DNA of 64,000 nt from Escherichia coli (GTDB lineage: Bacteria > Pseudomonadota > Gammaproteobacteria > Enterobacterales > Enterobacteriaceae): assembly GCF_022846255.1 (NCBI RefSeq), contig NZ_AP025682.1; one strand, given 5' to 3'. Below are positions 2,546 through 56,877 of the stretch, piece after piece; the stretch's first letter is position 1, and every line of letters begins with the position of its first letter. The notes under the pieces were generated by a model, which did no database searches, had not been told where the DNA came from, and saw nothing but the letters and a program-made list of their open reading frames with translations. Position numbers and translations under genes: made by a program.

Positions 2546-3016
2546 TCAGGCGTGTTCTTTCAGCCAGTTCAGCACAACGTCGTGGTGATTGCTGGTTTTG
2601 AAATCGTCAAAAACATGTTCGATTTTGCCATCAGCGTCAATCAGGAAGCTGATGCGATGAATACCATTGTAGGTTTTGCCCATGAAGGACTTTTCACCCC
2701 AGACGCCGAATTGTTCGCACACCTGGTGGTCCTCATCAGACAGGAGCGTAAAGTTAAGCAGCTCTTTTTCCGCAAAACGGGAGAGTTTTTCGGGTTTATC
2801 GGTGCTGATACCCAGCACATCAACGCCCGCTTTTTTCAACTCATCCATGTTATCGCGTAAGCCGCAGGCCTGTACGGTACAGCCGGGGGTCATGGCTTTC
2901 GGGTAGAAATAAACCAGAACACGCTGTCCCTGGAAGTCGGTCAAATTAACTTGTTCTCCGTCTTGATCCGGCAAGCTAAATTTCGGTGCGATATCACCGG
3001 CTTTCAGTGGATTCAT
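2546..3016 (-). CDS. bcp: thiol peroxidase Bcp (peroxiredoxin, 156 aa)
   Basis: ORF track; peroxidatic cysteine motif KAMTPGCTVQACG. Confidence 0.95.
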   Translation of the reverse strand: MNPLKAGDIAPKFSLPDQDGEQVNLTDFQGQRVLVYFYPKAMTPGCTVQACGLRDNMDELKKAGVDVLGISTDKPEKLSRFAEKELLNFTLLSDEDHQVCEQFGVWGEKSFMGKTYNGIHRISFLIDADGKIEHVFDDFKTSNHHDVVLNWLKEHA

Positions 3017-3733: not shown

Positions 3734-4612
3734 ATGTTCACGGGAAGTATTGTCGCGATTGTTACTCCGATGGATGAAAAAGGTAATGTCTGTCGGGCTA
3801 GCTTGAAAAAACTGATTGATTATCATGTCGCCAGCGGTACTTCGGCGATCGTTTCTGTTGGCACCACTGGCGAGTCCGCTACCTTAAATCATGACGAACA
3901 TGCTGATGTGGTGATGATGACGCTGGAGCTGGCTGACGGGCGCATTCCGGTGATTGCCGGGACCGGCGCTAACGCTACTGCGGAAGCCATTAGCCTGACG
4001 CAGCGCTTCAATGACAGTGGTATCGTCGGCTGCCTGACGGTAACCCCTTACTACAATCGTCCGTCGCAAGAAGGTTTGTATCAGCATTTCAAAGCCATCG
4101 CTGAACATACTGACCTGCCGCAAATTCTGTATAATGTGCCGTCCCGTACTGGCTGCGATCTGCTCCCGGAAACGGTGGGCCGTCTGGCGAAAGTAAAAAA
4201 TATTATCGGAATCAAAGAGGCAACAGGGAACTTAACGCGTGTAAACCAGATCAAAGAGCTGGTTTCAGATGATTTTGTTCTGCTGAGCGGCGATGATGCG
4301 AGCGCGCTGGACTTCATGCAATTAGGCGGTCATGGGGTTATTTCCGTTACGGCTAACGTCGCAGCGCGTGATATGGCCCAGATGTGCAAACTGGCAGCAG
4401 AAGGGCATTTTGCCGAGGCACGCGTTATTAATCAGCGTCTGATGCCATTACACAACAAACTATTTGTCGAACCCAATCCAATCCCGGTGAAATGGGCATG
4501 TAAGGAACTGGGTCTTGTGGCGACCGATACGCTGCGCCTGCCAATGACACCAATCACCGACAGTGGTCGTGAGACGGTCAGAGCGGCGCTTAAGCATGCC
4601 GGTTTGCTGTAA
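3734..4612 (+). CDS. dapA: 4-hydroxy-tetrahydrodipicolinate synthase DapA (292 aa)
   Basis: N-terminus [20 protein letters not shown]-track ORF begins 6 codons upstream at 3716. Confidence 0.95.
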
Positions 4613-4628
4613 AGTTTAGGGAGATTTG

Positions 4629-5663
4629 ATGGCTTACTCTGTTCAAAAGTCGCGCCTGGCAAAGGTTGCGGGTGTTTCGCTTGTTTTATTACTCGCTGCC
4701 TGTAGTTCTGACTCACGCTATAAGCGTCAGGTCAGTGGTGATGAAGCCTACCTGGAAGCGGCACCGCTTGCGGAGCTTCATGCCCCGGCTGGAATGATTT
4801 TGCCGGTGACCTCCGGTGATTATGCAATCCCGGTGACCAACGGTAGTGGTGCTGTCGGTAAGGCGCTGGACATTCGTCCACCAGCCCAGCCGTTGGCACT
4901 GGTTTCTGGCGCGCGTACCCAGTTCACGGGCGATACCGCTTCATTGCTGGTGGAAAATGGTCGTGGCAATACTCTGTGGCCGCAGGTGGTTAGCGTGCTG
5001 CAGGCGAAAAACTACACCATCACCCAACGTGATGATGCTGGTCAGACACTGACCACCGATTGGGTACAATGGAACCGTCTGGACGAAGACGAGCAGTATC
5101 GTGGTCGTTATCAAATCTCTGTTAAGCCGCAGGGTTATCAGCAGGCGGTTACGGTTAAACTGCTGAACCTGGAACAGGCGGGCAAACCGGTCGCAGACGC
5201 GGCTTCCATGCAGCGTTACAGCACGGAGATGATGAACGTTATTTCCGCCGGTCTGGATAAATCTGCCACTGACGCCGCGAACGCTGCGCAAAATCGTGCC
5301 TCCACCACTATGGACGTACAAAGTGCAGCTGATGACACCGGTTTACCAATGCTGGTCGTACGCGGGCCGTTCAATGTGGTTTGGCAACGTCTGCCAGCTG
5401 CGCTGGAAAAAGTGGGCATGAAAGTGACTGACAGCACCCGTTCGCAGGGCAACATGGCCGTAACTTATAAGCCGCTGTCTGACAGCGAATGGCACGAACT
5501 GGGCGCGAGCGATCCAGGTCTGGCATCCGGTGACTATAAACTGCAGGTTGGCGATTTAGATAACCGCAGCAGCCTACAGTTCATCGATCCGAAAGGTCAT
5601 ACTCTGACTCAGAGTCAGAACGACGCGCTGGTAGCTGTCTTCCAGGCTGCGTTTAGCAAGTAA
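4629..5663 (+). CDS. bamC: outer membrane protein assembly factor BamC (NlpB) lipoprotein (344 aa)
   Basis: Signal peptide with lipobox LLLAAC; full-length match to recalled BamC. Confidence 0.95.
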
Positions 5664-5764: not shown

Positions 5765-5820
5765 GTCTGTCGGACGTAGGTCGGATAAGGCGTTTACGCC
5801 GCATCCGACAAAACATCCGG
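5765..5820. repeat. REP (repetitive extragenic palindromic) element in purC leader
   Basis: gtaggtcggataaggcgtttacgccgcatccgacaa matches the canonical E. coli REP pattern. Confidence 0.75.
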
Positions 5821-10427: not shown

Positions 10428-10498
10428 GCCGGGTAGGTCTGATAAGACTGTATCAGGCATCATGGCCGGATGCGGCGTTAACGCCTTATCCGGCCACT
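10428..10498. repeat. tandem REP units (BIME-like) between ypfH and ypfN
   Basis: gggtaggtctgataagactgtatcaggcatc followed by ggccggatgcggcgttaacgccttatccggcc. Confidence 0.75.
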
Positions 10499-51710: not shown

Positions 51711-52543
51711 TGTTTGCCGTTTCTTCAAGACGCGTGCTGCCGGGCTTTACCTTAAGCCTCGGCACCAGTCTGCTGTTTGTGTGCCTGATTTTGCTGCTGC
51801 CGCTCTCCGCGCTGGTGATGCAACTGGCCCAGATGAGCTGGGCGCAGTACTGGGAGGTGATCACCAACCCGCAGGTGGTCGCAGCCTATAAAGTGACGCT
51901 GCTGTCGGCGTTTGTGGCATCGATTTTTAACGGCGTTTTCGGTCTGCTGATGGCGTGGATCTTAACCCGCTATCGCTTTCCGGGTCGCACGCTGCTTGAT
52001 GCGCTGATGGATTTACCCTTTGCGCTGCCAACGGCAGTCGCCGGTTTAACGCTGGCCTCGCTCTTTTCCGTGAACGGTTTTTACGGTGAATGGCTGGCGA
52101 AGTTTGATATCAAAGTCACCTATACCTGGCTGGGGATTGCGGTGGCGATGGCCTTTACCAGCATTCCGTTTGTGGTGCGCACCGTGCAGCCGGTGCTGGA
52201 AGAGTTAGGCCCGGAATATGAAGAGGCGGCAGAAACGCTCGGCGCAACACGCTGGCAGAGTTTTCGCAAAGTGGTGCTGCCGGAACTATCTCCGGCGCTG
52301 GTGGCGGGTGTGGCGCTGTCGTTTACCCGCAGCCTCGGTGAGTTTGGCGCGGTGATTTTTATCGCCGGGAATATCGCCTGGAAAACAGAAGTGACGTCGC
52401 TGATGATCTTTGTTCGCTTACAGGAGTTTGATTACCCGGCGGCGAGCGCGATTGCCTCGGTGATCCTCGCGGCATCGCTGCTGTTGCTGTTCTCAATTAA
52501 CACTCTGCAAAGTCGCTTTGGTCGGCGTGTGGTAGGTCATTAA
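51710..52543 (+). CDS. cysU: sulfate/thiosulfate ABC transporter permease CysU (CysT) (277 aa)
   Basis: ORF track; start overlaps cysP stop. Confidence 0.95.
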   Translation: MFAVSSRRVLPGFTLSLGTSLLFVCLILLLPLSALVMQLAQMSWAQYWEVITNPQVVAAYKVTLLSAFVASIFNGVFGLLMAWILTRYRFPGRTLLDALMDLPFALPTAVAGLTLASLFSVNGFYGEWLAKFDIKVTYTWLGIAVAMAFTSIPFVVRTVQPVLEELGPEYEEAAETLGATRWQSFRKVVLPELSPALVAGVALSFTRSLGEFGAVIFIAGNIAWKTEVTSLMIFVRLQEFDYPAASAIASVILAASLLLLFSINTLQSRFGRRVVGH

Positions 52544-53418
52544 TGGCGGAAGTGACACAATTGAAGCGTTATGACGCGCGCCCGATTAACTGGGGCAAAT
52601 GGTTTCTGATTGGCATCGGGATGCTGGTATCGGCGTTCATCCTGCTGGTACCGATGATTTATATCTTCGTACAGGCGTTCAGCAAAGGACTGATGCCGGT
52701 GTTACAAAATCTGGCCGATCCGGACATGCTGCACGCCATCTGGCTGACGGTGATGATCGCGCTGATTGCCGTACCGGTAAACCTGGTGTTCGGTATTCTG
52801 CTGGCCTGGCTGGTGACGCGCTTTAACTTCCCCGGACGCCAGCTATTGCTGACGCTGTTGGACATTCCGTTTGCCGTGTCGCCGGTGGTTGCTGGTCTGG
52901 TGTATCTGCTGTTCTACGGCTCTAACGGCCCGCTGGGCGGCTGGCTGGATGAACATAATCTGCAAATTATGTTCTCCTGGCCGGGTATGGTACTGGTCAC
53001 CATCTTCGTGACGTGTCCGTTTGTGGTGCGCGAGCTGGTGCCGGTAATGTTAAGTCAGGGCAGCCAGGAAGACGAAGCGGCTATTTTGCTTGGCGCGTCC
53101 GGCTGGCAGATGTTCCGTCGCGTCACGCTGCCGAACATCCGCTGGGCGCTGCTTTACGGCGTGGTGCTGACCAACGCCCGCGCGATTGGCGAGTTTGGCG
53201 CGGTGTCGGTGGTTTCTGGCTCGATTCGCGGCGAAACACTTTCGCTGCCGTTACAGATTGAATTGCTGGAGCAGGACTACAACACCGTCGGCTCCTTTAC
53301 CGCCGCGGCGCTGTTGACGCTGATGGCGATTATCACCCTGTTTTTAAAGAGTATGTTGCAGTGGCGCCTGGAGAACCAGGAAAAACGCGCGCAGCAGGAG
53401 GAGCATCATGAGCATTGA
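52543..53418 (+). CDS. cysW: sulfate/thiosulfate ABC transporter permease CysW (291 aa)
   Basis: ORF track; start overlaps cysU stop. Confidence 0.95.
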
Positions 53419-54505
53419 GATTGCCAATATTAAGAAGTCGTTTGGTCGCACCCAGGTGCTGAACGATATCTCACTGGATATTCCTTCTGGTCAGATGGTC
53501 GCGTTGCTTGGGCCGTCCGGTTCCGGGAAAACCACGCTGCTGCGCATTATCGCCGGGCTGGAGCATCAAACCAGTGGGCATATTCGCTTTCACGGTACCG
53601 ACGTGAGCCGTCTGCACGCGCGGGACCGTAAAGTCGGTTTCGTGTTCCAGCATTACGCGCTGTTTCGCCATATGACGGTGTTTGACAATATCGCTTTTGG
53701 CCTGACGGTGTTGCCACGGCGTGAACGCCCGAATGCGGTGGCGATCAAAGCGAAAGTGACAAAATTGCTGGAGATGGTGCAGCTTGCTCATCTGGCAGAC
53801 CGCTATCCTGCGCAGCTTTCCGGCGGCCAGAAACAGCGTGTGGCGCTGGCGCGCGCGCTTGCTGTAGAACCGCAAATTCTGCTGCTTGATGAACCGTTTG
53901 GCGCGCTGGATGCGCAGGTGCGTAAAGAGTTGCGTCGCTGGCTGCGTCAGTTACATGAAGAGCTGAAATTCACCAGCGTGTTTGTGACCCATGACCAGGA
54001 AGAAGCGACCGAAGTAGCCGATCGTGTAGTGGTGATGAGCCAGGGCAATATCGAGCAGGCTGATGCACCGGACCAGGTATGGCGCGAACCAGCGACCCGT
54101 TTTGTACTCGAATTTATGGGCGAAGTTAACCGCCTGCAGGGAACCATTCGCGGCGGGCAGTTCCATGTTGGCGCACATCGCTGGCCGCTGGGCTATACAC
54201 CTGCGTATCAGGGGCCAGTGGATCTCTTCCTGCGTCCGTGGGAAGTGGATATCAGCCGCCGTACCAGCCTCGATTCGCCGCTGCCGGTACAGGTACTGGA
54301 AGCCAGCCCGAAAGGCCACTACACCCAATTAGTCGTGCAGCCGCTGGGGTGGTACAACGAAGCGCTGACGGTCGTGATGCACGGCGACGACGCCCCGCAA
54401 CGTGGCGAGCGTTTATTCGTTGGTCTGCAACATGCGCGGCTGTATAACGGCGACGAGCGTATTGAAACCCGCGATGAGGAACTTGCTCTCGCACAAAGCG
54501 CCTGA
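53408..54505 (+). CDS. cysA: sulfate/thiosulfate ABC transporter ATP-binding protein CysA (365 aa)
   Basis: Walker [10 protein letters not shown] and ABC signature [15 protein letters not shown]. Confidence 0.96.
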
Positions 54506-54526
54506 TAGGTTGAGTGAATGTTAAAC

Positions 54527-54559
54527 GCCCGGAGGCGCTTCCCGCGATCCGGGCTTTTT
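54527..54559 (+). terminator. terminator after cysA
   Basis: gcccgg...ccgggc hairpin followed by ttttt. Confidence 0.55.
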
Positions 54560-54577
54560 AATGGCAAGGTTTGTAAC

Positions 54578-54625
54578 CTGTAGGTCTGATAAGACGCGCA
54601 AGCGTCGCATCAGGCAACACCACGT
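54578..54625. repeat. REP element between cysA and cysM
   Basis: ctgtaggtctgataagacgcgcaagcgtcgcatcaggca. Confidence 0.75.
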
Positions 54626-54638
54626 ATGGACAGAGATC

Positions 54639-55550
54639 GTGAGTACATTAGAACAAACAATAGGCAATACGCCTCTGGTGAAGTTGCAGCGAATGGGGCC
54701 GGATAACGGCAGTGAAGTGTGGTTAAAGCTGGAAGGCAATAATCCGGCCGGTTCGGTGAAAGATCGTGCGGCGCTTTCGATGATCGTCGAGGCGGAAAAG
54801 CGCGGGGAAATTAAACCGGGTGATGTGTTAATCGAAGCCACCAGTGGTAACACCGGGATTGCGCTGGCAATGATTGCCGCGCTAAAAGGCTATCGCATGA
54901 AATTGCTGATGCCCGACAACATGAGCCAGGAACGCCGTGCGGCGATGCTGGCATACGGTGCGGAACTGATTCTTGTCACCAAAGAGCAGGGCATGGAAGG
55001 TGCGCGCGATCTGGCGCTGGAGATGGCCAATCGTGGTGAAGGAAAGCTGCTCGATCAGTTCAACAATCCCGATAACCCTTACGCCCATTACACCACTACC
55101 GGGCCGGAAATCTGGCAGCAAACCGGCGGGCGCATTACCCATTTTGTCTCCAGCATGGGAACAACCGGCACTATCACCGGCGTTTCACGCTTTATGCGCG
55201 AACAATCCAAACCGGTGACCATTGTTGGCCTGCAGCCGGAAGAAGGCAGCAGCATTCCGGGCATTCGCCGCTGGCCTGCGGAATATCTACCGGGGATTTT
55301 CAACGCTTCGCTGGTGGATGAGGTGCTGGATATTCATCAGCGCGATGCGGAAAACACCATGCGCGAACTGGCTGTGCGGGAAGGGATTTTCTGCGGCGTA
55401 AGCTCCGGCGGCGCGGTTGCCGGAGCACTGCGCGTGGCAAAAGCTAACCCCGGCGCGGTGGTTGTGGCGATCATCTGCGATCGCGGCGATCGTTACCTTT
55501 CTACCGGGGTATTCGGGGAAGAGCATTTTAGTCAGGGGGCGGGCATTTAA
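54639..55550 (+). CDS. cysM: cysteine synthase B CysM (303 aa)
   Basis: Recognised protein begins (M)STLEQTIGNTPLVKLQRMG at a GTG codon within ORF-track ORF 54561..55550. Confidence 0.92.
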   Translation: MSTLEQTIGNTPLVKLQRMGPDNGSEVWLKLEGNNPAGSVKDRAALSMIVEAEKRGEIKPGDVLIEATSGNTGIALAMIAALKGYRMKLLMPDNMSQERRAAMLAYGAELILVTKEQGMEGARDLALEMANRGEGKLLDQFNNPDNPYAHYTTTGPEIWQQTGGRITHFVSSMGTTGTITGVSRFMREQSKPVTIVGLQPEEGSSIPGIRRWPAEYLPGIFNASLVDEVLDIHQRDAENTMRELAVREGIFCGVSSGGAVAGALRVAKANPGAVVVAIICDRGDRYLSTGVFGEEHFSQGAGI

Positions 55551-55552
55551 GA

Positions 55553-56012
<460 letters not shown>

Positions 56013-56025
56013 GAGAAAAAATTAA

Positions 56026-56877
56026 ATGAGTAGTTTGTTGTTGTTTAACGATAAGAGCAGGGCACTGCAGGCGGATATCGTTGCCGTGCAGTCGCAGGTA
56101 GTGTACGGCAGCGTAGGCAACAGCATTGCGGTGCCTGCTATCAAACAGAACGGCCTGAATGTCTTTGCCGTGCCGACGGTATTGCTGAGCAATACGCCGC
56201 ATTATGACACTTTCTACGGTGGTGCGATTCCGGATGAATGGTTTAGCGGTTATTTGCGTGCGCTTCAGGAGCGTGATGCGCTGCGCCAACTTCGTGCTGT
56301 AACCACGGGCTATATGGGAACGGCATCGCAAATCAAAATCCTTGCCGAGTGGCTGACTGCGCTACGCAAAGACCATCCTGACCTATTGATCATGGTCGAT
56401 CCGGTGATTGGCGATATTGATAGCGGAATTTATGTCAAACCTAACCTTCCCGAGGCGTATCGACAATATTTACTGCCGCTGGCGCAGGGAATTACCCCCA
56501 ATATCTTTGAGCTGGAAATCCTGACCGGTAAAAATTGCCGCGATCTCGACAGTGTCATTGCTGCCGCAAAAAGTCTGCTTTCAGACACATTAAAATGGGT
56601 GGTGGTTACCAGCGCCTCCGGTAACGAAGAAAATCAGGAGATGCAGGTGGTGGTGGTGAGTGCCGACAGCGTGAATGTCATTTCCCATTCACGGGTAAAA
56701 ACCGATCTGAAAGGGACTGGCGACCTGTTTTGTGCTCAGCTTATCAGTGGTTTGCTGAAAGGGAAGGCGTTAAACGATGCGGTGCACCGCGCGGGGTTGC
56801 GCGTACTGGAAGTGATGCGCTATACCCAGCAGCATGAGAGCGATGAATTGATTTTGCCGCCTCTGGCTGAAGCATAA
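56026..56877 (+). CDS. pdxK: pyridoxal/pyridoxine/pyridoxamine kinase PdxK (283 aa)
   Basis: ORF track; ribokinase-like fold. Confidence 0.92.

Follow-up and report, generated by a model that had tools for sequence, protein, structure and literature searches.

The cysM/yfeK junction of an Escherichia coli strain without yfeS: the unoccupied and very probably ancestral form of a site at which K-12 carries a probably acquired islet

Has an E. coli chromosome in which the stop codons of cysM and yfeK almost touch lost the gene yfeS, or does it retain a junction into which K-12 and its relatives have gained that gene? The question was raised by a stretch of 64,000 nucleotides of E. coli DNA, referred to here as the window. 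Its initial annotation placed the two stop codons 2 bp apart and suspected the absence of yfeS, a gene of about 244 codons placed between them in K-12. The spacing was borne out to the base by the sequence and the list of open reading frames. The gene cysM, encoding cysteine synthase B, extends over positions 54639..55550 of the plus strand (303 aa, GTG start, TAA stop at 55548-55550), while yfeK, encoding a DUF5329 protein of 122 aa with an apparent signal peptide, occupies 55553..55921 on the minus strand with its stop codon at 55553-55555 (TTA on the plus strand). Between the convergent stop codons lies only the dinucleotide GA (55551..55552), the site that is occupied by a BIME and yfeS in K-12, as determined from the sequence, from alignment with K-12, BL21 and an E. 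coli strain with an empty site, and from a cross-species table of junctions. The gene order in the window is cysP-cysU-cysW-cysA-cysM on the plus strand, the 122-aa open reading frame on the minus strand, pdxK on the plus strand, and crr and ptsI on the minus strand. The synteny cysM - yfeK - pdxK - crr is fixed by pdxK (56026..56877, plus strand), which was identified from the open reading frame list, homologous RefSeq loci and an exact protein record.

The homologous stretches of RefSeq E. coli genomes are annotated as cysM, and a database record of E. coli cysteine synthase B matches the encoded protein exactly. The 122-aa open reading frame scored 108.7 bits against the Pfam family DUF5329 (PF17263; cut-off 27) and 277.3 bits over its full length, residues 1-122, against the NCBIfam model NF007646 (PRK10318.1-3; cut-off 171), and this exact protein, too, is recorded as E. 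coli YfeK. Its gene keeps the conserved place between these flanking genes, cysM and pdxK, and has a sigma-E-type promoter upstream, and its product is a member of the YfeK family with the native tail ..DKTVPVQ*. The assignment to YfeK rather than YfeS made in the initial annotation is thus correct. A truncated or mis-called YfeS was also considered for this open reading frame and was ruled out by the full-length YfeK profile matches and the lack of WGR similarity.

No YfeS-like sequence was detected anywhere in the 64-kb window, as the best tblastn match obtained with K-12 YfeS had an E value of 1.3, which is noise. A blastn search of the window with the additional K-12 segment returned only two REP-like matches of 31-41 nt, both located elsewhere in the window. 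These REP-like sequences, which match the BIME associated with yfeS in K-12, lie at 5776-5815 and 10465-10495. The suspected absence of the gene is therefore real. At the junction itself no deletion scar was seen: neither yfeS nor the BIME has left remnants there, and no IS element or notable repeat is present. Neither an intrinsic terminator nor a bidirectional hairpin was found at the 2-bp junction, and the region folds no better than shuffled sequence. The junction haplotype of the window, including the 2-bp spacing, occurs with 100% identity over about 6 kb in two independent assemblies (GCA_005387665.1 and DRR102846), and a metagenome contig with 99.97% identity also keeps the 2-bp junction; among complete E. 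coli genomes the haplotype is rare.

In K-12 MG1655, a 244-aa 'WGR domain-containing protein' is annotated between cysM and yfeK, so that the K-12 gene order and gene size given in the initial annotation proved accurate and K-12 yfeK does not directly adjoin cysM. The MG1655 locus (b2418-b2421) shares with the window the flanking genes, their order and orientation, and the 28-mer of the sigma-E-type promoter, and its flanks are 94-97% identical. It differs by approximately 955-963 bp of additional sequence at the junction, according to sequence alignment, and pairwise BLAST of K-12 against the window breaks between window positions 55555 and 55561. The initial annotation was right in naming yfeS as the missing gene, but the difference exceeds that gene. 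The additional segment consists of a BIME formed by two inverted REP-type palindromes on the left of the segment, of which none occurs at the window junction, followed by yfeS, a 32-bp spacer and a replaced 3' end of yfeK. K-12 YfeK accordingly has 124 aa and the tail ..PAEGN*, compared to ..PVQ* in the window, and the same 124-aa form ending in ..PAEGN* is found in yfeS-carrying strains. The K-12 BIME has a predicted folding energy of -50.7 kcal/mol (z = -4.9), and its sequence matches dozens of places per E. coli genome. Both ends of the cassette carry the 8-bp direct repeat GGATTAAT (positions 2052-2059 and 3004-3011 of the K-12 locus), which is also present in BL21 and in a metagenome-assembled genome (MAG) of Pseudocitrobacter. 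At the corresponding position the empty site reads AGATTATT, and the direct repeat resembles a single-copy target. Terminal inverted repeats, a transposase or an integrase were not found in the K-12 cassette, whose only open reading frame is yfeS. The G+C content of yfeS is 37-43% (about 40% overall) versus 50-60% in the flanks.

The frequency of the two forms was determined among 5426 complete E. coli genomes. Using yfeS alone as the query, the gene was present in 1387 of them (25.6%), and the whole additional K-12 segment was found in 1381. The 1400 matches to yfeS, with a median of one per genome, were all chromosomal except for one on a plasmid, and every copy that was displayed or inspected is situated at the cysM/yfeK locus. 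Two allele types occur, a K-12 type with at least 99% identity (1223 records) and a B type with about 97% identity (165 records). A megablast search with positions 55000-56100 of the window, which matched 5425 of the 5426 genomes, likewise separated two architectures: cysM, yfeK and pdxK in one piece, or cysM, yfeS, yfeK and pdxK in two pieces whose separation is larger by about 960 bp. The yfeS-carrying architecture is that of K-12 MG1655 and BL21, and the remaining 74% of the complete genomes, including O157:H7 and ST131 strains, have that of the window. Thus, the absence noted as a difference from K-12 is not peculiar to the window. The common empty allele of E. coli (A20, ECCNB12-2, O157:H7 and ST131 strains) resembles the window in its stop codons 2 bp apart, its 122-aa YfeK and the lack of REP sequences, but differs from it in the YfeK tail, which reads ..PAQ* instead of ..PVQ*. 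In E. coli ECCNB12-2, an IS4 element is located directly downstream of pdxK (locus L002, 3412-4101), in the place that crr takes in the window and in K-12. Insertions interrupt yfeS in some strains, namely ISVsa5 (IS4-like) in E. coli T2 (locus L033, 9740-11812) and IS1 in E. coli LR-03 (H41/H91), demonstrating that the gene is dispensable. A YfeS homologue of about 70% identity was observed on the 50-kb E. coli plasmid NZ_CP098226.1 (locus L041, 5001-5702), where it forms no intact open reading frame and carries no annotation.

The junction lies in a block of about 2.5 kb (53500..56000; the 3' half of cysA, cysM and yfeK) that is a hyper-divergent mosaic. Within this block, identity to the otherwise nearest E. 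coli strain, A20, is 93-96%, compared to 99-100% in the flanks, and the nearest relative switches between segments. Over cysM-yfeK all 5426 complete genomes differ from the window haplotype by 3-6%, and the best of them reaches 97.1% identity over 55000-56100; among named E. coli strains, divergence in the block amounts to up to 6-7%. This mosaic could plausibly have arisen through repeated recombination at a hotspot of insertion. Flank divergence was considered as a means of separating haplotypes with and without yfeS; the separation is not clean, the block being mosaic.

To place the junction in a wider context, a set with a single genome for each bacterial species was searched with YfeK, and the stop-to-stop distances and junction sequences of the resulting 22 loci were extracted. 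The empty junction TAAG(A/T)TTATTGCGCAGGCACC, with the 2-bp gap and a YfeK tail ..PAQ*, was found in E. coli A20, ECCNB12-2 and SCPM-O-B-8794 and in Pseudocitrobacter faecalis (L008). SCPM-O-B-8794, labelled 'E. coli', is a GTDB species representative, the second one for Escherichia with this junction. The stop codons are near-adjacent or overlapping, at distances of -12 to +57 bp, in Escherichia sp. E1V33, UBA5654, Superficieibacter sp., C. amalonaticus and Entomohabitans. In Escherichia sp. E1V33 (L005), the tails of cysM and yfeK overlap by 12 bp, the stop codon of cysM is TGA and the YfeK tail is ..PSNP*. Other species have cargo at the junction that is unrelated to yfeS: two unknown open reading frames of 280 and 175 aa in E. 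albertii (L011, 4331-6149), two of 628 and 654 aa in C. sedlakii (L013, 4364-8184), of which the 654-aa one contains TPR repeats, and one of 140 aa with similarity to SnoaL-like/DUF4440 proteins in Superficieibacter electus (L015, 4376-4891). The final residues of YfeK are different, too, in E. albertii and S. electus.

Outside E. coli, the cassette was encountered in Pseudocitrobacter, for which the evidence comes from one MAG (L007). There, yfeS (approximately 4408-5142), the cassette boundaries, the GGATTAAT ends and the rewritten YfeK tail are as in K-12 and BL21. At the DNA level, K-12 and the MAG are 95.9% identical in yfeS, versus 89.6% in cysM, 85.5% in yfeK and 68.6% in pdxK, and a sliding-window comparison gave 95-100% identity inside yfeS and 64-90% outside. 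Relatives of the YfeS protein are 89-98% identical within E. coli and Shigella and then drop to 65% or less, the genera named being Paenibacillus, Dysgonomonas, Lysinibacillus and Clostridium. Searches for yfeS recovered no copies in phages and almost none on plasmids. As an observation on the flanking genes, cysW of the window (52543-53418) is about 95% identical to its Pseudocitrobacter counterparts (L007/L008), compared to only 68-69% for pdxK; this disparity in sequence identity suggests either exchange of cys genes between the genera or a pdxK that may not be orthologous.

Because yfeS is missing from about three quarters of the complete E. coli genomes and outgroups share the empty junction, what calls for explanation is a gain by the lineage of K-12 and its relatives, and from these observations we infer that the gene was acquired there and not lost in the window. 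The ancestral state is most likely the empty site, as identical empty junctions arising across genera by independent deletions are very unlikely. An acquisition of yfeS is further indicated by its low G+C content, its distant next relatives, the 8-bp direct repeat and its 96% identity within diverged Pseudocitrobacter flanks. The common boundaries, GGATTAAT repeats and YfeK tail in K-12, BL21 and the Pseudocitrobacter MAG argue for a single origin of the cassette and its lateral spread. On this reading yfeS does not belong to the E. coli core genes. An islet of about 0.96 kb, comprising the BIME, yfeS and a new yfeK 3' end, would have entered the extreme end of yfeK in a single insertion. It would then have spread, presumably by way of homologous recombination in the conserved flanks, among some E. 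coli, in particular the K-12 and B lineages, and to at least one Pseudocitrobacter. The window therefore very probably represents the unoccupied ancestral junction, with yfeS as acquired islet cargo that K-12 and its relatives gained and that was not lost here.

A secondary loss, in which an ancestor of the window strain had the cassette and it was removed again, either by deletion or, more plausibly, by recombination restoring the empty allele from a strain lacking yfeS, appears rather unlikely. From the 3' half of cysA through yfeK, the sequence is a recombination mosaic of several haplotypes 3-7% apart, and the 5' half of cysM in the window has its nearest counterparts in the alleles of the yfeS-carrying strains K-12 and BL21 (96.5-97.1%), which makes some shared history possible. 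In principle, the 8-bp direct repeat bounding the cassette could mediate excision. However, if the K-12 form recombined between its GGATTAAT repeats and lost the intervening segment, TAAGGATTAATTTCCTTCCGCAGG and a YfeK ending in ..PAEGN* would remain, whereas the window has TAAGATTATTGTACAGG and ..PVQ*, the junction type common to the outgroups. Since the predicted excision product differs from the observed junction, simple excision is excluded and allelic replacement alone remains; its end state is the same as that of never having had the cassette, and no datum demands it.

Two further explanations carry still less weight. That yfeS resides elsewhere in the source genome is conceivable given that the window covers 64 kb of it, that one of the 1400 yfeS matches is on a plasmid, and that a degraded homologue of about 70% identity exists on an E. 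coli plasmid. Against this, 1399 of the 1400 matches are chromosomal, at a median of one per genome, and all inspected copies lie between cysM and yfeK; by analogy with this chromosomal, nearly single-copy pattern in complete genomes, a copy elsewhere would be excluded, and we regard relocation as highly improbable. Even less credible is a 2-bp junction produced by an assembly collapse or misassembly that dropped yfeS. This explanation came under consideration only because repeats, in the form of the BIME, flank yfeS in K-12, and no support for it was found. About 74% of the complete, mostly long-read, E. coli genomes have an identical junction, as do the independent assemblies that match the window perfectly over about 6 kb, and both open reading frames are intact and end at conserved positions. 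The recurrence of the junction in independent assemblies excludes an assembly artefact. Gain of yfeS by K-12 and its relatives at an ancestrally empty junction remains the preferred reading.

The two forms of the junction differ in the predicted transcriptional context of yfeK. A match to a sigma-E-type promoter, GAAACTT-N16-TCAAA, is located upstream of yfeK on the minus strand (55955..55982); the window contains no other match, 0.03 being expected by chance, and the identical 28-mer precedes yfeK in K-12. yfeK has been listed among sigma-E promoters (PMC3326320), K-12 yfeK and yfeS have been described as one sigma-E-driven operon (PMC11502571), and both genes rise under envelope stress (PMC6850105). 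The Keio ΔyfeS mutant is viable, and a sensitivity to boric acid that was only partly complemented has been reported for it (PMC11502571). In the window, yfeK stands alone, and the predicted promoter would drive this single gene only. Because no terminator-like site and no fold better than random was found between the convergent genes, the transcripts of cysM and yfeK may overlap, presumably as in most E. coli.

What kind of gene the islet carries was addressed by domain and neighborhood analysis. K-12 YfeS contains a WGR domain (PF05406), supported by a profile match and by the WGR fold, and this is the only domain detected by Pfam. A structure search directed at the C-terminal domain matched only the WGR half of the protein, with no convincing match for the helical half, and the PADLOC defence models matched neither YfeS nor YfeK. 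Among relatives of YfeS with 45-58% identity, all six loci with readable flanks (L034-L038 and L040) have immunity-type or related families nearby. In four of these (L035-L038), small genes form co-directional arrays that include the Imm10, Imm19, Barstar, SUKH/SMI1_KNR4 and Macro families, and a tyrosine recombinase is found immediately upstream of the array in three (L035-L037). The YfeS homologues of Paenibacillus (L034) and Lysinibacillus (L040) adjoin Imm10 and SUKH/Imm51 genes. Solely by this association with neighboring genes, the data suggest that YfeS may be an orphan immunity-type protein.

The arrangement of these distant homologues in arrays downstream of a tyrosine recombinase is reminiscent of the rAID-1 clusters of Bacteroidales, which have the layout of recombinase-associated acquired interbacterial defence (Ross et al., bioRxiv 10.1101/471110). 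E. coli yfeS resembles rAID-1 genes and orphan-immunity islets as a single dispensable gene of low G+C content that moves laterally. Unlike rAID-1, it is a lone gene with no recombinase, array or neighboring toxin. Our literature search found no published function or immunity role for YfeS, and in the portion of Zhang et al. 2012 (PMC3482391) consulted for a link between WGR and immunity proteins, WGR, YfeS and MolR are not mentioned. A broader and so far tentative proposal, which we consider possible but doubtful, is that the cysM/yfeK junction serves as a recurrent landing site in Enterobacteriaceae and that yfeS is an orphan immunity-type gene directed against an interbacterial toxin and moved between genera via recombination in the flanks. 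If this were true, the window would represent the naive allele of a strain-level polymorphism in interbacterial defence, and repeated allelic exchange would have left the diverged mosaic around the junction as its footprint.

The presence or absence of yfeS is an already known accessory-gene polymorphism, both forms of which are found in public RefSeq annotations. At this locus, the strain from which the window derives has the gene content of most E. coli, with little consequence for its annotation. As side results, the analysis provides a functional hint for the uncharacterised YfeS protein, from the occurrence of its homologues in immunity-gene neighborhoods in other phyla, and points to the junction as a multi-species insertion hotspot within a hyper-variable block. 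For E. coli as a species, the locus is a caution that K-12 is not the reference state, as it would be K-12 that carries the derived allele at cysM/yfeK.
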